DNA from: a bacterium
GTDB lineage: Bacteria > Patescibacteriota > CPR2 > UBA1875 > CAIMLA01
DNA length: 61,406 bases
Direction of reading: 5' to 3'
NCBI GenBank assembly: GCA_037140175.1
Contig: JBAXEY010000001.1
Span: 1 to 61,406 of the forward strand
The notes beneath the pieces were generated by a model. The model ran no database searches. It was given only the letters and a program-made list of their open reading frames with translations, and was not told where the DNA came from. Shown here piece after piece: positions 2,632-61,406 of the stretch. The first letter of the stretch is position 1. Each line of letters opens with the position of its first letter. A program made the translations under genes and the position numbers.

Positions 2632-4827
2632 TTATATTTTTTTGAATTTTAAAAGAAGTGAATTTGTCACAACAGAAACGCTAGAAAAGGCCATCGCTAA
2701 GCCCGCCAACTCCGGTTTTAAGACTATCCCCCAGATCGGATATAAAAGCCCAACCGCTATTGGAATACCAATAATATTATAAATAAAGGCCCAAAATAAA
2801 TTTTGCTTTATCTTTGCCATAGTAAATCTTGATAATTTAATTGCTGAGAGAACATCTTCCAAATTATCTTTAACCAAGATAATATCACCTGCTTCAATCG
2901 CGACGTCAGTTCCACTGCCCAGCGCAATACCAACATCAGCTTGGGTCAGGGCAATAGAATCGTTGATGCCATCACCAACCATAGCAACAATTCGCCCCTC
3001 TTCTTGTAGTCTTTTTACTTCTTTCGCTTTGTTTTGAGGCAAAACGCCTGCCAAAACCTTTGTGATTCCGACCTGGCCCGCAATAACCTCAGCCGAAACC
3101 TTGTTATCACCCGTAATCATAATTGCCTCGATATGTAACTTTTTCAATGCCGTTACCACCTTAAGTGAGTTACTCCTCACTTGATCCGCAACAGCAATAA
3201 TTCCCAACGCATTGGATTTGCTTGCCAAAATCATGATAGTTTTGCCATCCTTTTCCAAATTCTCAGCCTCAACCTCAAAGAGACTAATCGAGATCTTGTT
3301 TTCCCTAATTAATTTTTTATTACCTAAAAGGTATTTTTTTCCATCAATGTTCCCTGAAACCCCGTGGCCAGTGAGAGATTCAAACCCACTTACATCAGCC
3401 AGATCTAGTTTTTCTGAAACTGATTTTTTTATAATTGCGTCAGCTAACGGGTGCTCACTTAACTTCTCCAAAGAAGCCGCAATTAATAAAACTGTCCTCA
3501 CATCAGGAGCAATAATATCAGTGACCTCTGGCTCTCCTTTGGTGAGTGTTCCTGTTTTATCAAAAACAATAGTATTAACTTTGCGGGTAGCCTCTAAGGC
3601 CTCACCTGATTTGATCAAGATCCCTCTAGCGGCTCCTTTGCCTGTCCCAACCATAATAGCCGTAGGAGTCGCCAGTCCAAGGGCACAAGGACACGCAATA
3701 ACCAAAACCGAGATCCCAGACATCAAGGAAAAAATCAAATCTTGGCCAATTATGAACCAACCCAAAAACGTGAGAAGAGAAATGCCTATAATGGTAGGAA
3801 CAAAATATGATGAGATACGGTCCGCTACTCTCTGGATTGGAGCTTTGGATCCTTGAGCTTCTTCGATTAATCTTATTATCTGGGAAAGGAATGTTCCTTC
3901 TCCAACCTTCGTTGCCCTTAACTCAATAGATCCATTCTTATTGAAGGTAGCCCCGACCACATCACTCCCTATCCTCTTTTCCACAGGAAATGGTTCTCCT
4001 GAAATCATCGACTCATCTATTGTCGTAAGTCCTTTTGTGACCACCCCATCTATCGGTATTTTTTCACCGGGCTTAACAAAAATTAAATCGCCAATTTTAA
4101 CCTCATCGATTGGTATGTTTTTTTCCTTACCATCGACTATGACGCGCGCAGTTTTCGCCTTTAGTCCCATTAATTTTTTGATTGCTTGGCTAGTTTTGCC
4201 TTTAGCTCTCTCCTCTAAAAGTTTTCCTAGTAAAATAAATGTGATTAACAGGGCCGCAGTCTCGTAATAGACATCCCCAGATAACCAAAAGGTATTCAAT
4301 ACTGAATAAAAATAGGCCGCACTCGTTCCCAAAACAATAAGTGTGTCCATGTTAGTTGTTTTTGCTTTTGCGGCCTTGTAAGCCCCCTTATAAAATTGCC
4401 AGCCAGCAAAAAACTGGACAGGAGTAGTGAGCAAAAAAAGGATTAATTTCCTTCCCGAAAAGTCCATTAGTATCTCTGCATTTATTCCAAACAACATCAA
4501 TAATTGAGGCATAGAGATTATCAATATTGGTATTGATAGAATAAGAGCAATAATAAATCGGCTGAAGACTTTCCTGTATGATTGCTCTTTGTCAGACTCA
4601 ATTTCTTTTGCAGTCATATTTGCTTTGGCAGTATATCCAGCCTTCTCAACAACCTTTATCAAGTGTTCTGATTGAATGGATGGATCAGCAAGCTCTATTG
4701 TTGCCTTGGCGGTCGCATAGTTAACATTTGCGGATTTGATTCCATCCTCTTTTTTTAAAGCATTTTCTATATTTAGAGCACAGCTCGCGCAGTGCATATC
4801 TGTGATATCTAATTTGATTGTTTCCAT
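2632..4827 (-). CDS. copA: copper-translocating P1B-type ATPase
   Basis: 731 aa. N-terminal HMA motif MHCASC, membrane CPC motif ([11 protein letters not shown]), phosphorylation site DKTGTLT and hinge GDGINDS. Confidence 0.9.
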
Positions 4828-4836
4828 GACTTTCTC

Positions 4837-6192
4837 CTAAGGAATTACTTCAAAAGTGCCGCTATACATGCCCATAGAGCATGAAAATCTTATCTTCCCT
4901 ACTTGTTCCGGAGTAAATTCGATAACATTCTCTTTTTGATCCAGAAATTTTTTTATATTTAGTTCTGGAACAGTCAAAAAGCTTGAACAAGAACCAATAT
5001 CATTAGCTGTAATCAGCCATTTTGTCGGAATCCCTCTTTTCAAAACAAAATAATTAGGGCTGTATTTTGTCGCAAATTGATCCATTTTAATTATTTGTTT
5101 CCCGTCCACCACTGGAGCAGACTCAGGGTCATTATCAGACTGGGCAGATTTCTGGTTACTTTCAAGTTTCGGAATAGTAACTCCGGCCTGTGTCAAGCCA
5201 TGCCCCAGATTGATACAAGCTAAAAAGATTAATAGGAGTCCAACTGTTTTAAAGAAAATCTTAGAAATATTCCCTTCCTTTAGAAAGGCCGAAAGGCTTC
5301 CAATTGTAATTAGTCCTGGAGTGGTACCTAGGGCAAATACTCCCATCATTATTGCTCCAGTGGTAAATTTACCCGATGCAAGGGCAAAGACTTGGACAGC
5401 TTGAGTAAAGCCACAAGGCAAAAAAAACGTTAAACCTCCCAGGGCAAACGCATTAGTATTCGTATAAGCCTGGTTGCTTTTTTCTCCAATCTTAAATTTC
5501 TTGCTGATTGATTTTGGTAGAGTCAAACGGTCAATCAGATTCGGGAAAAACCCAAGTAATTTGATGCCCAGAAATAAAAGATATATACCCAAGATTAAGG
5601 TTATTATCGCTAGCGAAAAGCCTGACAATTGCAAAACTGATCCGCCCAAACCTAAAATCCCACCAAAAATAGAAAAAAGTACAATCCTACCAAGATTAAA
5701 TATCAGCTGTGGTTTAATCTTTTGGAGTGGTTTTAAATCTGGATGTTGATTTGAATACTTGCTAGAGATACCCAGGACTAGCCCCCCCACCACTGCCATG
5801 CAGGTTGAAAAGCCAGCCGCCAATCCTACCAAAAAAACGGTTATTATGCTAGAACCTATCTTTGGTTTGGCAGAGAAAATATTAATTATGTTTGTTTCAT
5901 AGCCAACTATAAGTAGGGTACCAAAAATCAACAAAGCAATCATAAAGTTTCTATAATCATAGTCAGGTGCCACTTTTGTACCTGCTTTACTCTTGCTTAA
6001 TCTATACTCAGTTTCCTTAATCTTTTTACTAATCGTCTCATCTGAAACTTCATTTTTAGATTCAATCAAAAGTTGTCCTTTTTTCGAATCTGCGGTAACC
6101 TTACTAACTCCAGGAATCTGACCAACCTTTTCTTCGATTAGTATTTCACATGAACGACAATGCATACCCTCTATATCATAGTTTGTTTTCAT
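4837..6192 (-). CDS. HMA-domain / polytopic membrane (TauE/SafE- or DsbD_2-like) / C-terminal cupredoxin-like metal-handling protein
   Basis: 451 aa. N-terminal GMHCRSC HMA motif, about 6 TM helices with FLPCGFTQ, and a soluble roughly 100-aa C-terminal beta-rich domain. Lies 9 nt upstream of copA. Confidence 0.5.
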   Translation of the reverse strand: MKTNYDIEGMHCRSCEILIEEKVGQIPGVSKVTADSKKGQLLIESKNEVSDETISKKIKETEYRLSKSKAGTKVAPDYDYRNFMIALLIFGTLLIVGYETNIINIFSAKPKIGSSIITVFLVGLAAGFSTCMAVVGGLVLGISSKYSNQHPDLKPLQKIKPQLIFNLGRIVLFSIFGGILGLGGSVLQLSGFSLAIITLILGIYLLFLGIKLLGFFPNLIDRLTLPKSISKKFKIGEKSNQAYTNTNAFALGGLTFFLPCGFTQAVQVFALASGKFTTGAIMMGVFALGTTPGLITIGSLSAFLKEGNISKIFFKTVGLLLIFLACINLGHGLTQAGVTIPKLESNQKSAQSDNDPESAPVVDGKQIIKMDQFATKYSPNYFVLKRGIPTKWLITANDIGSCSSFLTVPELNIKKFLDQKENVIEFTPEQVGKIRFSCSMGMYSGTFEVIP

Positions 6193-42736: not shown

Positions 42737-42811
42737 GGTCCCATCGTCTAGGGGTTAGGACGCCAGGTTTTCATCCTGGTAACAGGGGTTCGAATCCCCT
42801 TGGGACTGCCA
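42737..42811 (+). tRNA. tRNA-Glu (anticodon UUC), CCA encoded
   Basis: Cloverleaf folded by hand. Acceptor GGTCCCA/TGGGACT, anticodon stem CCAGG/CCTGG with loop TTTTCAT, T-arm AGGGG-TTCGAAT-CCCCT. Close to the canonical bacterial tRNA-Glu sequence. Confidence 0.9.
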
Positions 42812-43370: not shown

Positions 43371-44240
43371 ATGATTAGCGAACAAACAAAGTATAAGATT
43401 AGGGCGCTCAAAAAAGAGTATGAACAGCTAAAAGCCGGAAAAGAATCCCTCCTGGCTCTTTTACGAGAGGCTGAGTTACCAGAACTTGTCTATAACTCAA
43501 ATGCCATAGAGAACTCAACACTAACTCTGAAAGAAACCGAGAAGATTCTTTTAGAACAAGAAGTTATGCGTGATGTTTCTGTTCGAGAACTTTTTGAAGC
43601 GAAAAATTTGGCACGTGTTCTAGAGTATCTTGAATCTCGACCGAATCTCGAGTTAAATATTGACAACATTCTATTATTACATCGCATGTTGATTGGTGGC
43701 ATAAATGACAAGATTGCTGGCAAACTTCGTCAGCCAAATGAGTACGTTCGAGTCGGATCCCACATTGCACCAGCGCCCGAACATGTAGAACGATTGTTAG
43801 ATAGCTTACTAAGCGATTATTTAAGTAATCACGAACAATATTTCATAGATAATATTGGACAATTTCACACCGAGCTCGAGTTTATCCATCCATTCGTCGA
43901 CGGTAATGGGCGAATTGGTCGAGTGGTAGTAAATCTACAGTTGATGTCTTTTGGCTATCCGCCAATTATTATTCGCAGCAAAGGCAAACAAAATGACTAT
44001 TACCCATTATTTAGAGATTATCAAAACAACAAGGATTCGAGCGGGATGTCGGATCTTTTCGCGCTTGCACTGCAAGAGTCTTTGCATAAACGACTCGCTT
44101 ATCTAAAAGGCATGAATATCGTAAAACTAGTAGTTTATGCAAAAGAGCATAATTTAGCACCCAATGGACAACTCAACGCAGCAAAACGTCAAACAATACC
44201 AGCATTTCGTGAAAAAGGTGTTTGGAAAATAGGGGAATAG
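43371..44240 (+). CDS. Fic-domain protein (AMPylase-type motif) with N-terminal inhibitory motif and C-terminal HTH-like tail
   Basis: 289 aa. Canonical HPFVDGNGRIGR, SNAIEN at residues 43-48 matching [ST]xxxE[GN], and a C-terminal ...RQTIPAFREKGVWKIG tail resembling an excisionase-type HTH. Confidence 0.85.
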   Translation: MISEQTKYKIRALKKEYEQLKAGKESLLALLREAELPELVYNSNAIENSTLTLKETEKILLEQEVMRDVSVRELFEAKNLARVLEYLESRPNLELNIDNILLLHRMLIGGINDKIAGKLRQPNEYVRVGSHIAPAPEHVERLLDSLLSDYLSNHEQYFIDNIGQFHTELEFIHPFVDGNGRIGRVVVNLQLMSFGYPPIIIRSKGKQNDYYPLFRDYQNNKDSSGMSDLFALALQESLHKRLAYLKGMNIVKLVVYAKEHNLAPNGQLNAAKRQTIPAFREKGVWKIGE

Positions 44241-44424: not shown

Positions 44425-45519
44425 TTATTCCTCGGTTAATCTGAACTTATATAGTGATATTGTTAATGTTATCAAAATCCAACCAAGCACTATTAATATA
44501 TTCGCGGGGTTAGCAAAGGGTGAACCAGCCTCGATCGCAACGGTTCGCATCATTCTGAGCAATGGTGCTAGTGGTAGATACTGAACAATGTTTGATAACC
44601 AAGTTGGCAATGAATCAATCGGGAAGAAAATTCCAGCGAGAAACATCATCGGGATAGAAACAGCTTGTGCCATCCCTTCGGCCGCATCCGTTGTTTTAGC
44701 AAACGAGGCAATCGTAAACCCAACTAGTTGAAATAGGATGCCGCCCAACAAAGAGAGCATGACCACGACAAATATATTTCCATTGATATGTCCGTTGAAA
44801 CCATAGATACCAATAGATAGAATTAGAGCAATCTGAACTAGATTTAATACTAACCTTGAGGTAACCTCTGCTAATACAAACTTCCAAGTCTTCAAAGGAG
44901 TCGAGATAATTCTCTTTAATATTTTATCTTCACGATATTTGGAGATACTGACTGCAATCCCAATAATTGAGCCATTCATCAAAGCTAGGCCCAGTATCCC
45001 CACCAAAACAAAATCAAAATAGGTAAAGTCGTTATTTTTTGAATTGTTATTGATAAGTTCCTGCTCGGTCACAAAAAGGGGTTGGACGTTTTGAATCTTG
45101 AAACTAGCCTCCGTCAAAATCTTATCGGTTATAGTCCTAAGTACCCCACTGGTTTGGACGCTCGCTGGATCAACATAAATCTTGATCTTATTTGTTGTAT
45201 CTGGTCCAGCAACTCCAAAGTTTTCGGGAATATAAACCGCCGCAGATAACTTCCCTTTTTTTATTTCGCTCTTAGCCTTATCTATTGAATCAATTTTGGT
45301 TATCTTAAAAACCTTTGACTCGGTAATCCCCCTATCCACCCCTATAGAAATTTCATTTTTGGACTTATTGATAATTGTAATAGTCCCACTCGAGGTGTTG
45401 TCGTGGCCAAAAAACAAACCAAAGATAACAATAAAGATTACAGGGAAAGCGATGCTCCAAAATAATGCTTGTCGGTTACGAACCATCATCTTCAGGTTGG
45501 CTTTAAAAAGTTTAAACAC
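44425..45519 (-). CDS. ABC-2 type transporter permease
   Basis: 364 aa. One N-terminal TM helix, a large extracytoplasmic loop, then 5 TM helices. Overlaps the ATPase gene by 8 nt. Confidence 0.75.
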   Translation of the reverse strand: MFKLFKANLKMMVRNRQALFWSIAFPVIFIVIFGLFFGHDNTSSGTITIINKSKNEISIGVDRGITESKVFKITKIDSIDKAKSEIKKGKLSAAVYIPENFGVAGPDTTNKIKIYVDPASVQTSGVLRTITDKILTEASFKIQNVQPLFVTEQELINNNSKNNDFTYFDFVLVGILGLALMNGSIIGIAVSISKYREDKILKRIISTPLKTWKFVLAEVTSRLVLNLVQIALILSIGIYGFNGHINGNIFVVVMLSLLGGILFQLVGFTIASFAKTTDAAEGMAQAVSIPMMFLAGIFFPIDSLPTWLSNIVQYLPLAPLLRMMRTVAIEAGSPFANPANILIVLGWILITLTISLYKFRLTEE

Positions 45520-46486
45520 TCTCTTCCTCCGTAATATTCCGCCCGGTAAGCTCGATAAACACGTCCTCTAGGGTCGCTTTACTAACCGTCAACTCATCTG
45601 GTTTATATGCGTGGATCTCCTTCAGCGCCTTCTGTAATTCTGATTGCTTATTTAAAATCAATTCACAGTGATACTCTTTACCAGCAATATAGCTAAGCTC
45701 ACCAATCCCAGCTAGTTTTGTTTTTAAGCTTTCGATATTTTTGGCTATGAATTTGATTCTGATCGGATGTTTGGCGTGCTTTATCAGCTTGTAAGTATCG
45801 TCAATGGCTACGATTTTACCGGCATCCATAATCCCAATTCGATCACAAAGGATTTCAGCCTCTTCCATATAGTGAGTGGTCAAAATAATTGTTTTGTTGC
45901 GTTTTTTTATCTCAGCGATAATTTCCCAAAGGTGGCGCCTCGAAATAGGATCTAGGCCTGTAGTAGGCTCATCTAGAAAAACAATCTCGGGATCATTGAT
46001 AAGGCTTGCAACGATTGAAAACCGCTGTTTTTGACCACCAGAGAGATTGTTTACAAACGAATCTATCTTTTGCTCTAGACCAACTTGTTTCAGCAATTCT
46101 TTCGGATTTGTCTCCTGACCATAAAAGCTGGCAAAAAGATCAATAATCTCGCCTAGTTTTAAATAACGATAGTATGCCGATGATTGAAGCTGAATGCCAA
46201 TCTTGCTTTTGATTTCACTCAAATTTTTGTTGAGATCAAGGTCTAATATTTTAATATTACCCGAAGTCGCCTTCCTCAAGCCTTCTATTATTTCCAAAGT
46301 TGTGGTTTTTCCTGCGCCGTTTTCTCCTATCAAGCCAAAAATCTCCCCCCTATTTACTGTAAAGGAAATATCGTTAACGGCCGCAAAGTTGCCATATTTT
46401 TTGACTAAATTTGTTACTTCGATAGTATTTTTCATATTTTGGTTTTTATCTCCGTTGTTGGACGCGTTAGTATTGGCCTGACTCAC
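45512..46486 (-). CDS. ABC transporter ATP-binding protein
   Basis: Walker A GENGAGKTT, signature LSGGQKQR, Walker B VFLDEPT. GTG start at 46486, or ATG at 46435. Confidence 0.85.
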   Translation of the reverse strand: MSQANTNASNNGDKNQNMKNTIEVTNLVKKYGNFAAVNDISFTVNRGEIFGLIGENGAGKTTTLEIIEGLRKATSGNIKILDLDLNKNLSEIKSKIGIQLQSSAYYRYLKLGEIIDLFASFYGQETNPKELLKQVGLEQKIDSFVNNLSGGQKQRFSIVASLINDPEIVFLDEPTTGLDPISRRHLWEIIAEIKKRNKTIILTTHYMEEAEILCDRIGIMDAGKIVAIDDTYKLIKHAKHPIRIKFIAKNIESLKTKLAGIGELSYIAGKEYHCELILNKQSELQKALKEIHAYKPDELTVSKATLEDVFIELTGRNITEEESV

Positions 46487-47073: not shown

Positions 47074-48264
47074 CTATTTTTCGATAAGTGCTTTTGTCTC
47101 TTGTTCTTTCAAGAACATTGCCTTTGAAAAAGCTTCTTCATAGCCATCTACATTGTGCCGAGGTGAGAAGAGAAACTCAGCTCTTTTACGAGGTACTTGT
47201 GGTGGAATGCTATCTACCTTTTTCATATACTTGGCAATCCGGTCTATATATTTGAGCTGAGAATCCGTGACCTCAGTATCATTTTCGTTTATGCCCAAAT
47301 CATCGACTGGAACTAAAACTCCACTCTGATCAATCATCTCGGTCAACGAGCCTAAGGCTGGACCGACTACTGGTGTGCCCGAGGCCATCGCTTCTGCTAC
47401 TACCAAGCCAAAGGGCTCTGCCCAAAGGTTGGTCATCATCACAGCTTTGGCGTTTCTCATCAACTTCGCTTTTTCGTCTAGTGTACTCATTCCTAAATAT
47501 TCATCATTAGGGCCAAGTCGTGGAGCCACAAATTTATCATAATAATCGGTTTCGTGCTTTTCCGCTTTTTTACCAATCAATTTGATCGGCATCCCGATTT
47601 TATGCGCTACTTCTATCGCGATATGTGGACCTTTTTCCATACAAAATCGACCAACCCAAAGCAGATAATCACCTTTTTTGTTGTAATTGACGGTGTAGAA
47701 ATCAGTATTAACCGCATTATAGACCGTGCCTAGATGGTTTTTGATGTTGAAACATTCAAGGTACCGCCTCGCCTGATCTTTACTGATACTTACAAAGTAT
47801 TGACCTGCATCTGATAAATCGTGGATTAGTTTTGGCAGGTGATCCTTGGCTGGACCATGCCAGGTCTGAACGATTGGAGTATCTCCCGTATTTATTAATT
47901 CTTCTGGTCGAAGTACAATATCTGCCTTAAAAAGAAATTTCGATTTGTTTTCCCTCATCTCCTGGGCGTACACGGCCAAGGTATTATCCCAGATAACATC
48001 TGGCCTCTCGGCAAGCGCTAGCTCATAAGCAATCCGGTTACATTCTTTCTCTTTGGCAAATGACACTCCTTGGCCAAGCGCTGTTGGTGTTGTGGCTACT
48101 AATTTGGAAGTAACCTTGGAATCACCCGAAGCAAATACATAGACATCGTGGCCTCTTTTGACCATTTCTTCCTCGGCAATTGAAACCACAGTTTCAATCC
48201 CACCATATTTTTGATCCCGACCCAGAATTGGGATTACAACCGGCCCAATAATACAAATTTTCAT
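47074..48264 (-). CDS. GT4-family (GT-B fold) glycosyltransferase
   Basis: 396 aa. N-terminal GGIETVV and a C-terminal EX7E-type motif EPFGLVVAEAMASGTPVV. Confidence 0.8.
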   Translation of the reverse strand: MKICIIGPVVIPILGRDQKYGGIETVVSIAEEEMVKRGHDVYVFASGDSKVTSKLVATTPTALGQGVSFAKEKECNRIAYELALAERPDVIWDNTLAVYAQEMRENKSKFLFKADIVLRPEELINTGDTPIVQTWHGPAKDHLPKLIHDLSDAGQYFVSISKDQARRYLECFNIKNHLGTVYNAVNTDFYTVNYNKKGDYLLWVGRFCMEKGPHIAIEVAHKIGMPIKLIGKKAEKHETDYYDKFVAPRLGPNDEYLGMSTLDEKAKLMRNAKAVMMTNLWAEPFGLVVAEAMASGTPVVGPALGSLTEMIDQSGVLVPVDDLGINENDTEVTDSQLKYIDRIAKYMKKVDSIPPQVPRKRAEFLFSPRHNVDGYEEAFSKAMFLKEQETKALIEK

Positions 48265-51150: not shown

Positions 51151-53355
51151 TTATTCAGAAGAGACGTCCAATATCTTTGGCTCTGGTGTATGGTTGTCTT
51201 TTTCTGGCATTGCGTGCTTGCGATACGGAATCTTGAACCCAAAGGTTGAGCCATGGCCTTCTGATGATTCAAAGAATATTTCTCCACCATGATCCTCTAC
51301 GACTCTTTTGGCTAGATAAATACCCAGACCAGTCCCATCAGGTCGAATCTTGCGAGCATTACCCGCTCTAAAAAATTTCTCAAATATTTTCGGCTGTTCA
51401 GCCTTGGGAATGCCAACCCCAGTATCAACGACTGAGTAGATTACCATATCTTTTATTTTTTCTAATTTCACGGTCACACCACCTTCCTCGGTATAATAAA
51501 GTGCGTTGTCGATAAAATTCATTACAACCTGTCGAATCTTAGTCTCATCAACCCAAACATGAGGTATTTTGCCTGTTTTGGCAATCTTCAGATATAAACC
51601 CTTGTCCCCTGCTTGCTTTTGCAATTCTTTGACTTCCTGACTAACCAGCTCCTCGATATCAACCTCAGTCGGCTCGATGAAAAACCGTCCGGTATCCATC
51701 CGAGAAACATTCAAAAGATCATTGATAAGACCGACCATCCGACTCGATCCATCAAAGGCTTCATGGACAAATTCTTCCTGGCCCTTAGTAATCTTACCGA
51801 CATCGCCCTCCAGAAGCATCGAGAGGTAGCCTTTGATAACCGTCAGCGGAGTTCGCAGTTGGTGTGAAGCCATCGAGATAAACTCATCCTTGGCCTGATC
51901 AAGCTCACGAAGCTGGGCATTCTTTTCCTCCAGCCTTTTGGTTGCATGTTTGACTTCGTTTTTAAGGGTGACATTGAAACGGCTTATTTCCTCGTATGAT
52001 TTAGCATTTTCGATCGCAACCGAGACTTCGGGAGCGATAATCTCCAAGATACGAAGATCCTGCTGGTTAAACATATCACCTGAGTTTTTCTCTCCCAGAA
52101 GCAAAACACCGACGATTTCCTTCTCTGTCTTGAGAGGCAGAGAGATCGATGCTTCGAACTTACGGAGTGGCTCCTTATATTGAGAGTCCTCGTCTAGTTC
52201 ATCATAGACTGCTGTCCCGTTTCTGGCTAGACTCACGGCATCTTTCATGTCAATTTTTGGCTCGTCCTTGTATCCGCTCGTCTGAGTTGTATAGAGAGAG
52301 TAGTCTTCTTTAAAAAGGACAAAGATGCCTCGAGAAATTTTCATATCGCTAATCAGTATTTCTAAAACTTTGACCAAAAGTGCATCCAAAACTATGGTCG
52401 AGCTCATCAAATGAGACAGGTCGTCTAATAGCTTCTGTGGATCATAAGCATTTTTGAAAAATATTCGGTCAGTTTTGCGAGTGATCCAGCGACGCAAGGG
52501 CTGGAAAGAAAAGGCCATAATAACAGCCAAAACAGTTCTGATGGCCCCTTGGGTAAGATTGATCTGATCAAAGCTATCAGTGAAAAATATTCTTTCGATC
52601 GCGAGAACTGAACCAGCATAAAACAGAGCCAGTGTTGCTAAAAGAATGGCATAAGTTATTGATCTAGCAACTACAAGTCGAATGTCCATTAAGCGATGCT
52701 TTATAATGGCATAGGAGGTAAAGCCTAAAAAGAAAATCAAAGAGGAGGACACTATAGTTGCACCAACAATTTTATTTAAAAAGACTGATGCCACGAGTAA
52801 AGCCAATACAAACAGCACGGATAGAGTAATACCAAAAAGCATAAATTTTAGTTGAGCCTTAATTGCTCCTTGCGATTTTTTATATTTTATTATCAAAAGA
52901 CACAAGGCTGCAACCACATAAATAACAAAGTAAATTGGAAAATACGAGTAAATTGGGCCAGGGACGAGAGCATCAATTGAACCTGAATTCGTTAATGTTA
53001 TGGATAGGTTATAGTTTGTGAGCACAAAAGGAATAAATAATAAGGTAGGTACAAATATAAATATTTTTATCAAACTGCTTACCTTGGGTTTTTGGAATGG
53101 GAAATAAAAAGCAAACAATAACAACATAGGTGCTAGGAATATCGGTGCTATAATCGTTAGCCTGCTTAATGTTAACTCTAAATTTGGCTCTTGAGCAAAG
53201 TCAGCTAAAATATTAGTTGTTGTCCAAACAACCATTGAAGCACCAATTCCAGCAAAACTAAGGTTGATTGGATTATTAAGATTCCGTCTTAAAACCAAGC
53301 CAGTGATAACCATGGCTGCAAGCAAAACTGTTATAGATACTATAGAAGTTATCAT
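51151..53355 (-). CDS. polytopic sensor histidine kinase
   Basis: 734 aa. About 300 aa of TM helices, a GAF-like linker, H-box SMASHQLRTPLT, and N/G boxes (DNALYYT, GTGLGIYLAKR). No response regulator in the window. Confidence 0.85.
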   Translation of the reverse strand: MITSIVSITVLLAAMVITGLVLRRNLNNPINLSFAGIGASMVVWTTTNILADFAQEPNLELTLSRLTIIAPIFLAPMLLLFAFYFPFQKPKVSSLIKIFIFVPTLLFIPFVLTNYNLSITLTNSGSIDALVPGPIYSYFPIYFVIYVVAALCLLIIKYKKSQGAIKAQLKFMLFGITLSVLFVLALLVASVFLNKIVGATIVSSSLIFFLGFTSYAIIKHRLMDIRLVVARSITYAILLATLALFYAGSVLAIERIFFTDSFDQINLTQGAIRTVLAVIMAFSFQPLRRWITRKTDRIFFKNAYDPQKLLDDLSHLMSSTIVLDALLVKVLEILISDMKISRGIFVLFKEDYSLYTTQTSGYKDEPKIDMKDAVSLARNGTAVYDELDEDSQYKEPLRKFEASISLPLKTEKEIVGVLLLGEKNSGDMFNQQDLRILEIIAPEVSVAIENAKSYEEISRFNVTLKNEVKHATKRLEEKNAQLRELDQAKDEFISMASHQLRTPLTVIKGYLSMLLEGDVGKITKGQEEFVHEAFDGSSRMVGLINDLLNVSRMDTGRFFIEPTEVDIEELVSQEVKELQKQAGDKGLYLKIAKTGKIPHVWVDETKIRQVVMNFIDNALYYTEEGGVTVKLEKIKDMVIYSVVDTGVGIPKAEQPKIFEKFFRAGNARKIRPDGTGLGIYLAKRVVEDHGGEIFFESSEGHGSTFGFKIPYRKHAMPEKDNHTPEPKILDVSSE

Positions 53356-53370: not shown

Positions 53371-54090
53371 CTACTTTTTAGCGGTTATTAGCCAATCTTG
53401 TCCAGATAAGGTTTCACCTATAACTATATTAACTAACCCCGTTTCTGTTAATAATTTCTTATATTCTTCTTTAGAATGAAAATGATAATTTCCTTTTTTT
53501 TCGAGTAACACTATAACGGAACTGGAGATTAATACAACAAGAACAAAAGGCGCAATAATAAAAGTTTTAAATATCCCTAGAAGTTTTCTTTTTTTTGTTT
53601 TACCCTTCAGAAAGTTAAAATAGGCCTTGATTACTTCTTTCATAGTGGAATCTGGTCGAGGATCAGCTATAACAACTCTTCCCCCTGGTTTTAATAACCT
53701 ATAAAATTCCTTTAATACTAAATCATTTTCATTGATAGTAAATAAAGCATTTATACAAGTTATTCTATCAAAACTACTTTTCTCAAAATCAATTTTTTTT
53801 CTTAGGTTTGCCCTTTGAAAGCTAACGTTTTTGAATTTTCTGCAATTTTTTTTTGCTCTTTTAATCATTTTATTTGAAAAATCCAAACCAATTATTTCTA
53901 TTTCAGACTCGTGCTCTGCTAAAAATTTTTCAAAATTACCTGTACCACAACCAGCATCTAAAATCTTATGGCCAACATCAAGGTTTAGCGCTTTTAAAAT
54001 GTCAAGAAACTGGAGTTGATGAGAAACAGAATTTTTAATAGTTCTATTATAGGCAAAAGCACAATAATCCCATAACTTAGAAGTGGTCAT
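53371..54090 (-). CDS. class I SAM-dependent methyltransferase with C-terminal TM segment
   Basis: 239 aa. Motif I ILDAGCGTGNF and a hydrophobic helix FIIAPFVLVVLISSSVIVLL. Confidence 0.75.
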   Translation of the reverse strand: MTTSKLWDYCAFAYNRTIKNSVSHQLQFLDILKALNLDVGHKILDAGCGTGNFEKFLAEHESEIEIIGLDFSNKMIKRAKKNCRKFKNVSFQRANLRKKIDFEKSSFDRITCINALFTINENDLVLKEFYRLLKPGGRVVIADPRPDSTMKEVIKAYFNFLKGKTKKRKLLGIFKTFIIAPFVLVVLISSSVIVLLEKKGNYHFHSKEEYKKLLTETGLVNIVIGETLSGQDWLITAKK

Positions 54091-54890
54091 TTTTGTCCCT
54101 TTAATAGTTCGTAAAAATCAATAAACATGTAATCTGGGGTTAGCGGTAGTTTATCAAGCTTGAGGATGTGTAAAATAATTGCCATTTCAAGTAAGGAAGC
54201 AGCTGCCATAACACCTAAGCTGCAACTTGGAATATAATTTTTTCTTAAAGCGACGTTTAATGCTGTTATTTTGGGGACGTATTTTGGTATTTTTGGACAA
54301 AACTTTAGCATGGGTATCTTAAAATTGTTAATTTCTATTGCTGTCATATGCTCTGGATTTTTTAAGCCAATATAGTCCGCAAAACTAATGCTTTTGTCAT
54401 TAAAAACATATAAACTTGCACCAAAGCCTAAAGCCTGAGCTGCCAGAACAGTCTTTTTTTTATTTCTTGCTGTTTCATGAAGAAGATACATCGGAAAGGT
54501 TAGGTTATATTCAATTGCATCAATTACAATATCAGCTTCAGTAAACTCCTCAACATTTTCATTATTCACGCCTTGCTTATACACTTGAACTTTGATATTT
54601 GAGTTTATTTTTTTGCATTCTTCTACAATTACTTCGACTTTTTGTTCTCTTATATTTTCTAAGTTTGAAAAAACCATCCGGTTAAGATTCGATATCTCAA
54701 AACTATCAGGCTCTGCTACTTTGAAGTTTTCAATGCCCAATCTCACTAATCTTTCAAACAGAATACCTCCAATACCGCCAAGACCGGCAATAGACACCAT
54801 GGAATTTCTTAAACTCTCTTGTTGTCTTTTTTTAAGAACTCCTATATTGCGCTGGAATATTTCATCATATGTATATTTTTGTTTTTCCAT
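54087..54890 (-). CDS. ThiF/MoeB/HesA-family E1-like adenylyltransferase
   Basis: 267 aa. SIAGLGGIGG nucleotide loop and SNLNRM motif. No CxxC zinc motifs and no obvious catalytic Cys loop. Confidence 0.7.
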   Translation of the reverse strand: MEKQKYTYDEIFQRNIGVLKKRQQESLRNSMVSIAGLGGIGGILFERLVRLGIENFKVAEPDSFEISNLNRMVFSNLENIREQKVEVIVEECKKINSNIKVQVYKQGVNNENVEEFTEADIVIDAIEYNLTFPMYLLHETARNKKKTVLAAQALGFGASLYVFNDKSISFADYIGLKNPEHMTAIEINNFKIPMLKFCPKIPKYVPKITALNVALRKNYIPSCSLGVMAAASLLEMAIILHILKLDKLPLTPDYMFIDFYELLKGQK

Positions 54891-54904
54891 TATACCTCTG
54901 TCAA

Positions 54905-54935
54905 AATTATAAACTTCCCTTGACTATAAAACAAC
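54905..54935 (-). promoter_or_regulatory. 31-nt promoter box, copy 1 (upstream of the ThiF-like gene)
   Basis: Minus strand GTTGTTTTATAGTCAAGGGAAGTTTATAATT, read as TTGTTT, 16-nt spacer, TATAAT. 27/31 identical to 56150-56180. Confidence 0.5.
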
Positions 54936-54965
54936 CGAGAGAGGCCATCCCTCTTTAGCCATAAC

Positions 54966-55325
54966 TTAATTTATTTTTTTAAATATTTTTTTATAAAATA
55001 TATATAAAGTAATTGAAAGGTAAAAAATCAAAAGTGCCCAAATCCAGATTGGAATATTCTTGCCCCAAATTATCACATATACATACGGCCCGAACCAGGC
55101 AACTTGATTTATAATAAATGCCCTAACAAACTCATGATGCTTTAAAATCTCTTTTCCTTTTAGATTATGATTTTTCTTTAGCTTGATAATAACTTTTGCC
55201 ATCACAAACAAACCATAATAATAAAATGGGATAGAAATTAGAATTAAGACAATAAATATATACGGGTCAACATCATATGTGTTTATAGCTAGATCTCTAT
55301 AATAATTAATTAAATTAAAGTCCAT
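54966..55325 (-). CDS. small three-TM membrane protein
   Basis: 119 aa, very hydrophobic. Overlaps the upstream gene by 11 nt. Confidence 0.4.
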   Translation of the reverse strand: MDFNLINYYRDLAINTYDVDPYIFIVLILISIPFYYYGLFVMAKVIIKLKKNHNLKGKEILKHHEFVRAFIINQVAWFGPYVYVIIWGKNIPIWIWALLIFYLSITLYIFYKKIFKKIN

Positions 55326-56127
55326 TAGGAATCTCTTTCTTCGCAGTAAAGACTTTCCATATATTCAATATTGCCCTCACAACCACGTCACGACCTTTGT
55401 TTTTATAAACATAATATTCACCAAAATCATTCACTCGTTTATCGCTATGGGTAATTTTTTTACTAAAAAGAAGCTGGGGCTTGTCATCATAAAAACCCTC
55501 CATAATGTTACCTTCTCTGTCTAATGATCGGTATAATTCCCCTTCTTCCTGAAGAAATTTTTTAACCGTTCGCCACGTTTCGGCATCTGCTTTTTCAATT
55601 TTATGATTTTTTGGATCAATCATATATGGATTTGGGTAAATAAAATCAGCCACGCGAGCAATTGCCCCCAAAGTACGGATATTGGGGGTAATAAAAACAA
55701 ATTCAACTTTAAATTTTCCCTTTATAGCATTTTCGATTAATACTTTTCTTCCTAAAATATAGTCCATCGTCTTTAATACTCCACAATTCTGGTATTTTGG
55801 CGTTGTCGCGGACAGGCCAAATGTGTAAATATCTCTGCCAAATATTTTATGTTTGCGAATCGGTGCAATACCTATCAAATCTCCTTCTTTATTCCGCACG
55901 ATACATAACAAATAAGATTGGATACAGCCCTTACGGATGTATTCCGAATTGTATTCCCCCCAGGCTTCAGCAACTAAACCTTTTATTTCTTTGAGTGCGA
56001 TATCTTTGGCGACCTCGCCTATTTTGACATCTGGGTCCTTAATAATCTCGGCGAAGACTATTTCTTCTGTATTATTTCTACGTATTTTAACTTCTTTTAT
56101 TTTGCTTTTTTGTGTATATCGAGTCAT
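55315..56127 (-). CDS. uncharacterised 270-aa protein (only a weak GNAT-like hint)
   Basis: Long intact ORF. YQNCGVLKTM only loosely resembles the acyl-CoA-binding motif of GNATs, so the family is not assigned. Confidence 0.35.
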   Translation of the reverse strand: MTRYTQKSKIKEVKIRRNNTEEIVFAEIIKDPDVKIGEVAKDIALKEIKGLVAEAWGEYNSEYIRKGCIQSYLLCIVRNKEGDLIGIAPIRKHKIFGRDIYTFGLSATTPKYQNCGVLKTMDYILGRKVLIENAIKGKFKVEFVFITPNIRTLGAIARVADFIYPNPYMIDPKNHKIEKADAETWRTVKKFLQEEGELYRSLDREGNIMEGFYDDKPQLLFSKKITHSDKRVNDFGEYYVYKNKGRDVVVRAILNIWKVFTAKKEIPNGL

Positions 56128-58677: not shown

Positions 58678-59646
58678 TTAACATAATAATTCTTTTGGGA
58701 TCCCAAGACATGATTCTTTAAAACTGCATTTAGCACATCGGGGCAATCTAATAAAAAGCTTATCGTTTAAATTAACCGCAGTTTGTTGTAAATTTTTGCT
58801 TACAATGTGCATGTCTGAATCTATGAAAACATAATTAATTTTTTTCCCCGAAAGCTCCACTGATGTTTCGACTGTGCTTTTCGCTTGTTCCCATAATAGA
58901 TCAATATATCGATTCGTTGTCCCGTTTTTTATTTCAAGAATACAGGCTACTGAGGGATGGATATAAATGCTTATTTTTGAACTATACTTTTTAACAATTT
59001 CTCCTAGCTGAGACGCAACAGATAAATAATCATCTGGTAAAATCCAGGGGTATTCTCTAATTCTATCTTCTGTGCCAAAAGGAAAGCGGAATTCAATCCC
59101 ATGGACTTTTCTCTTAACAAGATAGTCAGCTATACGGCTTAGTTCACTTTGGTTTGGCTTCATTATCAATGTATTTGCATCAACAGTAAGACCCATTTTT
59201 ATATAATTGTTTAGATTTTTTTTTATCTTATCTAGTGTCTTTGTTTGTGTGAATAAACGGTGTGTATGATTTGATAGAGTATGAAAAGAATTAAAAATAA
59301 TTGTATTAAACTTTACTAAATTTTTTATATCACTTTCTTTTGATATGGCCAGCCCGTTTGTGTGTAGCACAATTTCTTTTGGCTTAATATAAGTTTCAAT
59401 ATCTTCTAAAATTTTCCGGAAATCTGGTCTAATAGTTGGTTCACCTCCAGAAATAATTACTCTCTCTAGGTTGGGGTACTGATTCTTAATTTTTTTAAAT
59501 ACTAGTACGAATTTATTCCGACTTTGAGACAACTGGGGCTTTTTACGGTGAGCAAAAACACAAAAACTGCAATTCAAGTTGCAGAAATAACTGACTTTTA
59601 TCTCAAGAAATGTCTTTTCCAAAAATATATTTTCAGGTTTATTCAT
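58678..59646 (-). CDS. radical SAM protein with short C-terminal Cys motif
   Basis: 322 aa. CNLNCSFC (CxxxCxxC), GGEPT, and C-terminal CAKCSFKESC. Lies 6 nt downstream of the SPASM enzyme gene. Confidence 0.8.
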   Translation of the reverse strand: MNKPENIFLEKTFLEIKVSYFCNLNCSFCVFAHRKKPQLSQSRNKFVLVFKKIKNQYPNLERVIISGGEPTIRPDFRKILEDIETYIKPKEIVLHTNGLAISKESDIKNLVKFNTIIFNSFHTLSNHTHRLFTQTKTLDKIKKNLNNYIKMGLTVDANTLIMKPNQSELSRIADYLVKRKVHGIEFRFPFGTEDRIREYPWILPDDYLSVASQLGEIVKKYSSKISIYIHPSVACILEIKNGTTNRYIDLLWEQAKSTVETSVELSGKKINYVFIDSDMHIVSKNLQQTAVNLNDKLFIRLPRCAKCSFKESCLGIPKELLC

Positions 59647-59652
59647 AAATAT

Positions 59653-61173
59653 TCAATCAAATTTATTAATTATCTGATCTATACTTTTATTTTGCAAAGG
59701 GTAAAAACCATTTTTATTAATATATGTGGAAATAATTTTCTTGTTTTTTCTATCCAAAAGTGGCCAAATTGTTACCTCGGCCCGTGATAGCAAGTTACAG
59801 GCACTATTGTCCTGGCCATACTCTGTGTCAGGGGCGAAAGGATTATTCTTTTTTATGGCCCTATCATTGACACATTGGCCCTGACAAAGGTGTTCATATC
59901 GGCAATTATTACATTTATTTGAGACGATTTCTTCGGTTAGGTCATAAAAACTGTTTTCTTTGATACTTTGAAGCATTACTTCTAACAAATCTCCGTCCTT
60001 GATATTTGCGTTAGTCTGCGGCTTTGCTAGCAGGCATTCCATAATTTCTCCTTTTGGTCCGATAATCAGATACGAACCATGGCAAGGAAAACAGGGATGG
60101 TTGTCAAAACATTGAGTTGCTACTGTATACCCTTTATCAAACATTTCATGCTTAAAAAGCAAAGGAATAGATAGTTGGAACGGATACCCTTTATCACGAT
60201 GTATCTTGACTAAGTAATAAGTGAGCTTCACTACTTTTTCATAGTCTGGAATGTATTTATGGTTTCTTTTTAGGGCATTTTTTAGTTCATCAACAATGTA
60301 TGGGAAGCTAATCGTCCACCTATCCACCTTATTTTCAATAGCAAATTGATATATTTTATTTAACACTTTTTTTGAACAAAGATTTTCTGTCCACATTGAA
60401 TTGATACTAATTTTAATACCAGGAAGCTCTTTACGTATATTTATTAGTTTCTTGTAATGAATTTTGGAATATTTTGTATTAGAAAGTCCTTTTTCTGTAC
60501 TCAGCCCATCAATAGATGAATGCAAATGAAACTTGTTAGCCTTATGTAGGGTAATTTCTTTTAATTCTTGCAAGTGTTCAGTTATTAGTGACGAATTACT
60601 TAATAGCTCCACTTCATTCAAGCTTTCTTTTGATAAAGCATATTTTACTAAAGATATTACGCCTTTCTTTGTCAACGGCTCACCTCCCGTTATTTTTATG
60701 CTGCCCGACCCTAAAATGGCGGCTTGATCGATTATTTTTTTTAACTCATCGATACTCAATTCATAATATTGCGCTTTTCTAACAAGTTTTTCCCAGTCTG
60801 TGTCTCTTGAGCGTTGATAACAATATTCGCATTCATAATTACAAATGGCCGTAACATTTAAGTCTAGTTTACGCCTCAATTTGTCTAACAAAAGTCTTGT
60901 TGGCCTGTCAGGATGGAAAAGAGCAATAAATTCAGCAAAAGTTAGGCTCTCAAATTTTGCATTAATACTTCTTTGCTGCGCTGGCTCATAGTTTAAAAAC
61001 CACCCATCTCTAATTTTTTTGTAAAAAAAACCACTTTCTACTGAAATATGATTACTTTTAAGAATTTTTTCAAGATTTGTATAACTGCTTTTAAACAAAA
61101 TTTCTGAGTCTTTAAACTCCCGAAATATATGATTATAGCTATAATAAAATATTTCTTCTAAAGTATTCTTCAT
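59653..61173 (-). CDS. radical SAM/SPASM-domain enzyme with about 100-aa N-terminal extension
   Basis: 506 aa. CNYECEYC, GGEPL, and C-terminal CFPCHG...ECL...CNNCRYEHLCQGQC, typical of SPASM auxiliary-cluster domains. Confidence 0.85.
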   Translation of the reverse strand: MKNTLEEIFYYSYNHIFREFKDSEILFKSSYTNLEKILKSNHISVESGFFYKKIRDGWFLNYEPAQQRSINAKFESLTFAEFIALFHPDRPTRLLLDKLRRKLDLNVTAICNYECEYCYQRSRDTDWEKLVRKAQYYELSIDELKKIIDQAAILGSGSIKITGGEPLTKKGVISLVKYALSKESLNEVELLSNSSLITEHLQELKEITLHKANKFHLHSSIDGLSTEKGLSNTKYSKIHYKKLINIRKELPGIKISINSMWTENLCSKKVLNKIYQFAIENKVDRWTISFPYIVDELKNALKRNHKYIPDYEKVVKLTYYLVKIHRDKGYPFQLSIPLLFKHEMFDKGYTVATQCFDNHPCFPCHGSYLIIGPKGEIMECLLAKPQTNANIKDGDLLEVMLQSIKENSFYDLTEEIVSNKCNNCRYEHLCQGQCVNDRAIKKNNPFAPDTEYGQDNSACNLLSRAEVTIWPLLDRKNKKIISTYINKNGFYPLQNKSIDQIINKFD

Positions 61174-61197
61174 TTAGATCTTTTTGGTACCGTCCAA

Positions 61198-61223
61198 CGT
61201 TTGATAGCCAATACTATCAAACG
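61198..61223 (-). promoter_or_regulatory. perfect 10-bp stem / 6-nt loop hairpin between the sORF and the radical SAM gene
   Basis: CGTTTGATAG-ccaata-CTATCAAACG. No U-tract follows on the minus strand. Confidence 0.45.
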
Positions 61224-61225
61224 AG

Positions 61226-61315
61226 TTAGTTTAGGTAGCGCGAAACAATTGATGTACTCTCATTGCTCTTTTTGCTAATGAATACACCCTTCATGAAAAG
61301 AATTAGTTTTTGCAT
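61226..61315 (-). CDS. 29-codon sORF, candidate precursor/leader peptide
   Basis: Hand translation gives MQKLILFMKGVFISKKSNESTSIVSRYLN, with AAAGGG 4 nt before the ATG. It sits between a strong promoter and the radical SAM genes. It is too short for the ORF track and has no other support. Confidence 0.25.
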   Translation of the reverse strand: MQKLILFMKGVFISKKSNESTSIVSRYLN

Positions 61316-61345
61316 TTTTCCCTTTGCTTATCTCTAATATAGAAC

Positions 61346-61373
61346 ATTATAGTGCTAATTATTTTAAAGTCAA
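61346..61373 (-). promoter_or_regulatory. near-consensus sigma70 promoter of the radical SAM operon
   Basis: Minus strand TTGACT (61373-61368), 16-nt spacer, TATAAT (61351-61346). Confidence 0.5.
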
Positions 61374-61406
61374 TGTGGAACTTGATAAACATTAGTAATA
61401 ATATAT

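Follow-up and report, generated by a model that had tools for sequence, protein, structure and literature searches.

Described systems close to the locus reported here include SuiB/streptide and SkfB, in which a short precursor gene lies directly upstream of an enzyme whose radical S-adenosylmethionine (SAM) core carries an extension at the N-terminus and auxiliary clusters towards the C-terminus. Tiarin clusters encode an additional aminoacyl-tRNA synthetase (aaRS) that matches one conserved residue of the precursor; there is also a housekeeping copy, and the one in the cluster has been proposed to provide immunity; neither radical SAM enzymes nor a tyrosyl-tRNA synthetase (TyrRS) figures in that preprint (10.64898/2025.12.02.691738). 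We examined the 61,406-nucleotide contig JBAXEY010000001.1 (assembly GCA_037140175.1, lineage CPR2 of the Patescibacteriota), the whole of which we call the window, and describe on its minus strand a cassette comprising a 29-codon small open reading frame (sORF), a 506-amino acid (aa) radical SAM/SPASM enzyme, a second radical SAM enzyme, a TyrRS and a hydrolase. It differs from the SuiB and SkfB systems in that the enzyme is only 17-19% identical in sequence to theirs, the peptide contains no Cys (hence no thioether as in SkfB) and no Lys-Trp pair (as in streptide), and an aaRS partner is absent from those systems. Peptide, SPASM enzyme and TyrRS make up a core trio that is co-inherited in bacteria of the Candidate Phyla Radiation (CPR) and in Frankia, as well as on an integrative element and a phage-like contig. 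Our best reading is that the cassette represents a new, very rare family of the type that makes RiPPs (peptides synthesized ribosomally and then modified after translation), with a product that would be made from the C-terminal Tyr-Leu-Asn/Ser of the peptide; its chemistry and role we infer from sequence.

An initial annotation of this DNA had listed a promoter, the 29-codon ORF, a hairpin and tandem radical SAM genes, all of which are indeed present on the minus strand. It had also proposed the ORF as partner peptide of the SPASM enzyme, excluded thioether chemistry because the peptide lacks Cys, pointed to a C-terminal aromatic-X-Asn triad as the key site, and named a conserved sORF beside orthologues of the enzyme as the test of the pairing. 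These proposals are supported, and the test came out in favour of the pairing. The sORF (61315-61226, minus strand; MQKLILFMKGVFISKKSNESTSIVSRYLN) has an AAGGGA ribosome-binding site (RBS) 5 nt 5' of its ATG, and the window peptide is free of Cys. A homologous sORF of 26-34 codons lies near the enzyme gene in all ten distinct relatives (37-51% identity; host GC 33-69%), which is the recurrence of precursor with modifying enzyme across genomes that is looked for in a RiPP system. In the window the conserved core of the peptide is T21-S22-x-x-S25-x-Y27-L28-N29, and the relatives' peptides end T-S-x-x-S-x-Y-L-[N/S]-stop. M1, S22, S25, Y27 and L28 are invariant in the peptide alignment (A2), T21 is nearly so, and the final residue is either Asn or Ser.

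Several further observations bear on whether the sORF is translated and selected as a protein. Every copy has a GGAGG-like RBS in front of it. The codons of the invariant Ser, Tyr and Leu differ synonymously between loci, and the sORFs of two closely related loci (L001 and L004) show 9 synonymous against 2 nonsynonymous codon differences; this synonymous variation therefore indicates selection on the protein and not on the RNA. A six-frame translation of 357 kb contained S-x-Y-L-[N/S]-stop 25 times, against 1.08 occurrences expected. Of these copies, 24 are next to the enzyme gene. The lone stray copy, an S-x-Y-L-S-stop at 47243-47260 (plus strand) of the window, is antisense to a glycosyltransferase gene and provides an empirical false-positive control. 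Together with the many 25-30-codon ORFs in the window, this stray copy is what could be said for the sORF being a chance ORF in front of two radical SAM genes that are unrelated housekeeping enzymes. That explanation is effectively refuted by conservation at the protein level across hosts so different in GC content, by the RBS at each copy and by the synonymous changes, and we give it a negligible probability. From its pattern of conservation we conclude that the 29-codon sORF is a real conserved small gene.

The peptides of the relatives include MSAFFYLIKGIFSINKKSREITSFISRYLN in L007 (Shapirobacteria), MKTFFYFLKGLLFSKQRKEITSLISNYLN in L001, MKSILFLIRGLLFSKKQGEVTSLVSNYLN in L024, MKIFKLFLKGIFSSNQRKELTSIVSNYLN in L025, MMKLLKKIYKKLVSKREFSFSSRYLS in L022, MTTFIGNLFRSLFKKPVDRKGLTTSTASRYLS in L010 and MSPLARFTAILRSYTKTRRSTRVRVTSAGSRYLS in L009 (Frankia). 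The phage-like contig L013 carries two paralogous sORFs, at 1520-1615 (plus strand) and at about 4775-4909 (plus strand), flanking its radical SAM-TyrRS pair. Their motif is shifted, with Y-C (Y-C-D, Y-C-G) plus a C-terminal follower instead of Y-L-N-stop (...ITSDYCDMADAPIA and ...NCSYCGDIYTDEDD...), and the follower is acidic in the second copy; we regard these sORFs as probable but unproven relatives.

Relatives of the 506-aa enzyme are few. Among 5.8 billion protein clusters there were only 15, the best at 51% identity, and an exhaustive profile search of 1.84 billion representatives returned about seven full-length clusters (at 50% identity) before reaching generic radical SAM scores. The GTDB species set held one genome with the enzyme, a metagenome-assembled genome of Candidatus Shapirobacteria (CPR). 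No match to the enzyme family was found in 2.9 million viral contigs, 50,697 phage records gave one weak match (22.8% identity), and plasmids gave MoaA-level matches only.

Gene contexts were compared for all relatives that could be looked up. The order in the window is peptide, radical SAM/SPASM, radical SAM, TyrRS and Amidohydro_2-family hydrolase. In four CPR-like loci with a GC content of 33-40% (L001, L004, L007 and L024), the TyrRS gene comes first and is followed by the sORF, radical SAM/SPASM, radical SAM and Amidohydro_2 genes. L025 (CPR-like, GC 34%) has a bacterial-type TyrRS gene divergent from sORF-radical SAM-radical SAM, and then a convergent archaeal-type TyrRS gene; L022 and L026 (CPR-like, GC 33%) read TyrRS, sORF and radical SAM up to the contig end. 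The metagenomic loci L010, L011, L012 and L027 (GC 59-60%), which we call the mobile-element loci, have the sORF, TyrRS, a 266-aa P-loop protein and a 342-aa protein, convergent with the radical SAM/SPASM gene, and L009, from Frankia sp. Mgl5 (GC 69%), has the mobile-element order of L010-L012 with its sORF divergent from the TyrRS gene. The phage-like contig L013 (GC 33%) has an sORF, radical SAM/SPASM (30% identity), TyrRS and the second sORF, and also encodes proteins of the tail-chaperone, HNH and DprA families.

Two of the mobile-element loci, from the same metagenome, have 13.3 kb in common at 99.99% identity (L011 8315-21647 and L012 5126-18458), with the whole cassette inside. Because this common stretch begins with a 124-aa gene and a tyrosine integrase gene, and the left flanks differ, we conclude that an integrative element carries the cassette. 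Around the mobile-element copies lie ArdA, TIR, restriction-modification and transposase genes.

The 506-aa enzyme (61173-59653, minus strand), a putative peptide maturase, matches the radical SAM model PF04055 at 60.6 bits (cut-off 29.5) and has the motif CNYECEYC at residues 111-118, the cysteines of which are invariant (alignment A1). The initial annotation had called its Cys-rich C-terminus SPASM-like, and this description is borne out: the protein matches the SPASM model TIGR04085 at 35.7 bits (cut-off 27), and the seven-Cys pattern that we took as the criterion for SPASM (Cx9-15Gx4C ... Cx2Cx5Cx3C ... C) is found in residues 364-459 as C364-x10-G375-x4-C380, C421-x2-C424-x5-C430-x3-C434 and C459, invariant in 13 sequences. 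C361 is also invariant. The AlphaFold2 model of the enzyme (pLDDT 83.6, pTM 0.88) had its best Foldseek matches in SuiB (5v1s; E = 2e-11, target-normalised TM 0.58) and SkfB (6efn), which rank ahead of MoaA, viperin, anSME and PqqE.

The first approximately 100 residues had been thought to leave room for a PqqD-like RiPP recognition element (RRE), and on this point the earlier proposal fails. Such an element is a winged helix consisting of three helices plus a three-stranded sheet (PF05402). Residues 1-101 of the model form seven helices and no strand, with pLDDT mostly between 73 and 96, and four N-terminal domains gave no match to PF05402 even at E <= 10; nor did any other Pfam family match these residues at that threshold. 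The all-helical model and the missing match together rule out a PqqD-type RRE in this part of the enzyme, which distinguishes it from SuiB, whose N-terminal domain is a PqqD-like RRE. A separate PqqD gene was likewise absent from the transcription unit in a Pfam scan of its proteins. The all-helical N-terminal domain may be a peptide-binding domain of another kind.

The NCBIfam equivalog models all score far under their cut-offs: 56.9 bits for anSME (TIGR03942, cut-off 349), 39.8 bits for MftC (TIGR03962, cut-off 265), 36.7 bits for PqqE (TIGR02109, cut-off 381), 34.8 bits for YhhB (NF041707, cut-off 445) and 39.7 bits for PapB (NF047865, cut-off 340). On these scores the enzyme falls outside every named family, and the possibility raised at the outset, that its closest homologues would prove to be sulfatase maturases or cofactor-biosynthesis enzymes, was not realized. 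The transcription unit contains no sulfatase gene. PADLOC anti-phage defence models gave no specific match, only generic radical SAM core matches to viperin models, and the enzyme, the peptide and the system as a whole are without any specific NCBIfam, Pfam or PADLOC model.

Because the sORF product is the only conserved peptide, and because SuiB- and SkfB-like SPASM enzymes modify peptides, we think that the peptide is probably a RiPP precursor on which the SPASM enzyme acts. The N-terminal half of the peptide, basic and hydrophobic, would serve as a leader, docking on the helical N-terminal domain of the enzyme, and the radical chemistry would be directed at the invariant C-terminal S-x-Y-L-[N/S]. 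A parallel exists in the three-residue cyclophane (triceptide) maturases XyeB and YhhB, SPASM enzymes that act on aromatic-X-X motifs, which Y-L-N and Y-L-S fit formally. However, the match to the YhhB family is far too low, known triceptide substrates usually repeat their motifs whereas here a single invariant motif stands at the extreme C-terminus, and the L013 variants read Y-C-D and Y-C-G, in which Gly has no beta carbon.

The TyrRS is the most informative conserved partner in the unit. It had been overlooked along with the hydrolase; the operon genes that were listed at first are correct, and the unit is larger than that list. Once the TyrRS and the conservation across phyla are included, the finding gains in interest. 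The window TyrRS (420 aa; 58494-57232, minus strand) is of the TyrZ-like bacterial type and matches TIGR00234 at 271.9 bits (cut-off 113.8) over model positions 6-404 of 406, with the HIGH motif intact, KQSKS as the KMSKS-like motif and a C-terminal tRNA-binding domain (alignment A3). A TyrRS gene lies within approximately 3 kb of the enzyme gene in every locus for which flanks are available, and the linkage persists through three gene orders and host GC contents of 33-69%. The specificity of the cluster aaRS thereby equals a conserved residue of the precursor, Tyr, at ten distinct loci and also in the L013 variant.

The linked synthetases are of three unrelated types: TyrZ-like in CPR bacteria, TyrS-like on mobile elements and in Frankia, and archaeal. 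TyrZ-like and TyrS-like cluster enzymes are approximately 26% identical, whereas their partner radical SAM enzymes are approximately 40% identical; the window TyrRS is 57% identical to that of L022 and only 37% to that of L001, and the identities of the SPASM enzymes rank in the opposite order. Because the types are mixed and the identities discordant, we conclude that TyrRS function, rather than any one gene, has been kept or recruited repeatedly. The 5.6-kb contig L025 has two TyrRS genes, of bacterial and archaeal type (263-1450 and 4358-5482, both minus strand), on either side of peptide-radical SAM-radical SAM; one matches TIGR00234 at 288 bits and the other NF006330 at 389 bits. Since TyrRS is essential, a copy carried on the integrative element of L011 and L012 would be expected to be supernumerary. 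The Frankia cluster TyrRS falls in a small distinct group at 82-99% identity (Parafrankia 91%, one other record 82%), after which identities are 58% or less; ordinary actinobacterial TyrRS are approximately 50% identical to it. Separately, Kitasatospora nipponensis has two TyrRS genes (P0092 and P0095), 49% identical to the Frankia cluster copy, on one 49-kb contig, which may be another cluster with a duplicated TyrRS.

Resistance aaRS genes are well known in producer clusters and on mobile elements, as in the cases of mupirocin, indolmycin and albomycin, and the TyrRS inhibitor SB-219383 is a tyrosyl dipeptide in which the second residue mimics ribose-phosphate. The cassette resembles the tiarin/trifolitoxin and microcin C systems in having a ribosomal peptide with one residue that matches an aaRS specificity (here an invariant Tyr, always with a TyrRS), and it resembles tiarin clusters in having an aaRS gene of matching specificity within the cluster; a second TyrRS is seen in L025. 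The enzymology differs altogether from that of those systems: no TfxB- or MccB-type enzyme belongs to the conserved core, no exporter or acetyltransferase immunity gene is conserved, and TyrRS inhibition is hypothetical. By analogy, then, we tentatively propose that the product targets TyrRS and that the linked TyrRS shields the producer. A product that retains an intact tyrosine as its specificity element would block the TyrRS of competitors in Trojan-horse style, the co-inherited TyrRS would be the producer's protected or surplus copy, and the accessory enzymes, on weaker grounds, would finish or release the C-terminal fragment. The entire chain of events from leader docking onward, inhibition of TyrRS included, strikes us as a serious possibility that falls a little short of probable. 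More speculatively, an N-terminally trimmed Tyr-Leu-Asn/Ser, modified after the Tyr and with a tailored C-terminus, could mimic tyrosyl-adenylate; such mimicry predicts chemistry on L28 or N29 and not on the Tyr ring. The broadest form of the proposal is more doubtful: that the cassette, horizontally mobile and present in CPR bacteria, in Actinobacteria and on a phage-like element, makes a new class of radical-SAM-tailored peptide antibiotic, in which a Tyr-Leu-Asn/Ser warhead mimics tyrosyl-adenylate and poisons TyrRS, with the co-transferred TyrRS gene conferring immunity.

All of the cluster TyrRS are full length, with catalytic motifs and a tRNA-binding C-terminus, and match TIGR00234 at 272-357 bits over the whole model. 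This intactness would also suit a biosynthetic role, in which a tRNA-dependent step on the peptide draws on the TyrRS for Tyr-tRNA(Tyr) or Tyr-AMP. There are precedents in the addition of amino acids to a scaffold peptide in the PEARL pathways and in the EF-P system, in which a radical SAM aminomutase works alongside an aaRS paralogue. L001-L003 have a FemAB-like Acetyltransf_6 gene close to the cassette, and aaRS genes are known in clusters with tRNA-dependent steps (10.64898/2025.12.02.691738). However, no PEARL/LanB-like, Fem-like, CDPS or L/F-transferase gene is conserved across the loci, and the Acetyltransf_6 gene is missing from the window, L004, L007 and L009-L013. A housekeeping TyrRS would already provide Tyr-tRNA, leaving a dedicated copy superfluous, and the minimal, phage-like version of the system consists of peptide, radical SAM enzyme and TyrRS only. 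We therefore regard a biosynthetic TyrRS as unlikely.

A number of observations weigh against the TyrRS as target and shield. No exporter is conserved in the cassette among the loci compared, and no recognisable RRE is present in the enzyme or the unit. If the radical chemistry took place on the Tyr ring itself, for example to form a cyclophane, recognition by TyrRS would become less obvious. All members pair with a TyrRS, which leaves no covariation between residue and aaRS of the kind that lies behind the tiarin case. The window TyrRS is an ordinary CPR enzyme with hundreds of relatives at 60-75% identity (in Nealsonbacteria, Kerfeldbacteria, Komeilibacteria and Uhrbacteria), and the hydrolase gene does not follow the nearest of them (75% identity). 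A second synthetase of the same specificity is seen in L025 and implied for the L011/L012 element, and none was found in the 61-kb window; the window TyrRS may be the sole copy of its genome, which would fit an immunity paralogue less well. For Frankia, we infer the paralogy of the cluster TyrRS from its distance to the ordinary enzymes.

Full-text literature searches found no published description of a system of radical SAM enzyme, TyrRS and peptide. What is new here, in the literature searched, is that a radical SAM/SPASM system of the RiPP type lacks an RRE and has an aaRS as its obligatory partner, a pairing without precedent. If the proposed role were correct, the gene neighbourhood of this RiPP family would reveal its target, and the product of the family would be the first natural TyrRS inhibitor of ribosomal origin and a natural scaffold against TyrRS, a validated antibacterial target with few natural inhibitors. 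It would imply new radical SAM/SPASM chemistry on a Cys-free C-terminal Tyr-Leu-Asn/Ser without a recognisable RRE, and it would mean that CPR bacteria, with their minimal genomes, keep a five-gene specialised-metabolism cassette in common with Frankia and mobile elements. The mining rule of matching the cluster aaRS to a conserved residue of the precursor would likewise extend beyond tiarins. Should the TyrRS link prove to be regulatory or biosynthetic, a SPASM maturase obligatorily paired with a full-length aaRS would nonetheless lack precedent in the literature searched.

The accessory genes vary with the C-terminus of the peptide. The second radical SAM enzyme of the window (322 aa; 59646-58678, minus strand; CNLNCSFC) starts 6 nt past the stop codon of the 506-aa gene, as annotated initially, and matches PF04055 at 71.7 bits (cut-off 29.5). 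It has four more invariant cysteines, C235 and C304-x2-C307-x5-C313 (alignment A5), which are enough, judging by sequence, for one auxiliary cluster. HxsC and HxsC4 models align weakly over its full length, under their cut-offs, indicating an HxsC-like architecture. The His-Xaa-Ser system (HxsA, HxsB and HxsC) similarly has a SPASM enzyme and a smaller, non-SPASM radical SAM enzyme in tandem beside a small peptide gene. Here, however, the 322-aa protein reaches only 56.5 bits against the 267.9 of TIGR03977 (HxsC) and 50 against 500 for HxsC4, the peptide has no His-Xaa-Ser repeats, and HxsD is lacking. The hydrolase, a metal-dependent member of the Amidohydro_2 family (305 aa; 57253-56336, minus strand; PF04909, E = 2.8e-13), has a start that overlaps the 3' end of the TyrRS gene by 22 nt, and its metal ligands H21, H23, H160, H188 and D256 (H-x-H, H, H, D) are invariant in alignment A4.

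Every CPR-type locus of sufficient length has the second radical SAM gene, and the Amidohydro_2 gene is kept in L001, L004, L007 and L024. Six of six distinct Asn-ending peptides are accompanied by the second radical SAM gene, and five of these six loci have Amidohydro_2; in the exception, L025, the place of Amidohydro_2 after the second radical SAM gene is taken by the convergent archaeal-type TyrRS gene. All three distinct Ser-ending peptides with downstream DNA have instead the P-loop protein and the 342-aa protein, which is of unknown family. That the accessory gene set tracks the last residue suggests that the accessory enzymes act at or near the C-terminal residue. The P-loop protein of the mobile-element cassettes (266-271 aa; L009 12657-13472, L010 7902-8702, L011 12612-13412 and L027 3129-3932) has the sequence FHAVAV followed by a Walker A motif (GPxxSGKTS), and gives a faint match to the HprK C-terminal Pfam model (E = 0.22). 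In some lasso-peptide precursors the C-terminal Ser is phosphorylated by HprK-like kinases, and such a kinase acting on the Ser-ending peptides is an unverified lead. Searches of PDB sequences with the hydrolase, the 322-aa enzyme, and the 266-aa and 342-aa proteins gave nothing informative.

A further alternative is a peptide-derived cofactor or small molecule, following the logic of mycofactocin and PQQ: the SPASM enzyme would cross-link or decarboxylate near the Tyr, the amidohydrolase would excise the fragment for intracellular use, and the TyrRS would be linked only by co-regulation or ancestral synteny. There is indeed a parallel to MftC, MftE and MftA in the SPASM enzyme, the hydrolase, which could release a small product, and the short peptide with an invariant Tyr in its C-terminal region, the metal ligands of the hydrolase are intact, PqqE is among the structural matches, and the lack of a conserved exporter is as expected for an intracellular product. 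The differences are nonetheless considerable. The MftC and PqqE models score far under their cut-offs, as given above, and no MftB or other RRE protein is found. The Tyr is third from the end here and terminal in mycofactocin, the hydrolase is of the Amidohydro_2 family here and of the creatininase family there, and the TyrRS has no counterpart there. No dependent redox enzymes are conserved nearby. A cofactor would also leave unexplained the three TyrRS types, their linkage despite reordering, and the carriage on an integrative element and a phage-like contig. We consider this alternative improbable.

The cassette forms one minus-strand transcription unit, from 61373 to 56301, which reads sORF, radical SAM/SPASM, radical SAM, TyrRS and Amidohydro_2 hydrolase. 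The unit ends after the hydrolase gene because a strong intrinsic terminator (56332-56301, minus strand), with a 14-bp stem containing 8 G-C pairs and then TTTTCTTTTT, lies directly 3' of that gene, 4 nt past its stop codon. The candidate promoter is a sigma-70-like TTGACT-16-TATAAT (61373-61346, minus strand), which matches at 11 of 12 positions and lies 31 nt 5' of the sORF ATG. Two sites within 5.4 kb match this well (the other is at 58600-58571), and promoter-like sites overall are not enriched (24, against 19.1 +/- 4.4 in shuffles). The promoter match on its own is weak evidence, and the promoter rules of this lineage may differ from the sigma-70 consensus.

Between the sORF and the 506-aa gene is a stem-loop (61223-61198, minus strand) with a 10-bp stem and no U-run, of -15.9 kcal/mol and z = -3.5 to -3.6 relative to shuffles. 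The initial annotation had seen in this region the precursor, stem-loop and maturase layout of a RiPP operon; the precursor and maturase recur together in the ten distinct relatives, and the stem-loop is specific to the window. In the gaps between sORF and enzyme gene of the relatives that were checked, no hairpin was significant, those of L010 (z = -2.1) and L009 (z = -1.8) being marginal, and in L001, L004 and L024 the distance from the sORF stop to the enzyme ATG is merely 19-24 nt or so, too short for a hairpin. It may be a local element for mRNA stability or attenuation.

This hairpin is one of several features that could be expected if the sORF were a cis-acting leader or arrest peptide, similar to TnaC, that senses tyrosine or TyrRS status and controls the genes downstream of it, with the radical SAM enzymes acting elsewhere, for example on tRNA(Tyr) or on TyrRS. 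The sORF is the first cistron of the operon in most loci and lies directly 5' of the TyrRS gene in L010 and L011, and its conservation is concentrated in the last nine codons up to the stop, as in arrest peptides. However, the Frankia sORF points away from the TyrRS operon, and the next gene on its strand is unrelated and 558 nt off. The second L013 copy lies past the TyrRS gene with no cluster gene downstream, the hairpin is not conserved, and a lone Tyr codon would make a poor attenuator. SuiB- and SkfB-like SPASM enzymes, moreover, act on peptides, and the sORF product is the sole conserved one. We think a leader peptide quite unlikely, and prefer the reading of the sORF product as the substrate of the SPASM enzyme.

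A 44-codon ORF with a GTG start and an AAGGAG RBS (58625-58491, minus strand) precedes the TyrRS gene, its stop overlapping the TyrRS ATG (ATGA), and contains the second of the two best promoter-like sites. In the closest TyrRS relatives (P0140, P0142 and P0144; 445-450 aa) a similar sequence occurs as an in-frame N-terminal extension, with SNNNELDK where the ORF has SNNNGLDK. The ORF is either a detached or frameshifted N-terminal extension of TyrRS or a conserved upstream ORF.

Directly past the terminator is a separate minus-strand unit (53371-56127), which encodes a 270-aa protein, a 119-aa membrane protein, a ThiF-family adenylyltransferase and a class I methyltransferase. Its genes overlap or are tightly spaced; the 270-aa protein has no family match, and the ThiF-family protein is PRK08223-like (157.8 bits, under cut-off). 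ThiF-like enzymes act on the C-terminal Asn of microcin C-type peptides, and the sORF peptide also ends in Asn. These four genes were considered as part of the cassette core, with a microcin C-like adenylation of Asn, and were ruled out: they lie past the terminator and are missing from all relatives. A histidine kinase gene (734 aa, with 7TM and GAF domains; 51151-53355, minus strand) begins 15 nt downstream of the methyltransferase gene, and no response regulator adjoins it among the ORFs inspected. An ABC-2 transporter pair of ATPase and permease (44425-46486, minus strand) lies 10-15 kb from the cassette, neither adjacent nor linked to it. At a similar distance are a tRNA-Glu(UUC) gene (42737-42811, plus strand) and a Fic/DOC-family gene (43371-44240, plus strand); L001 likewise has a Fic gene close to its cassette.

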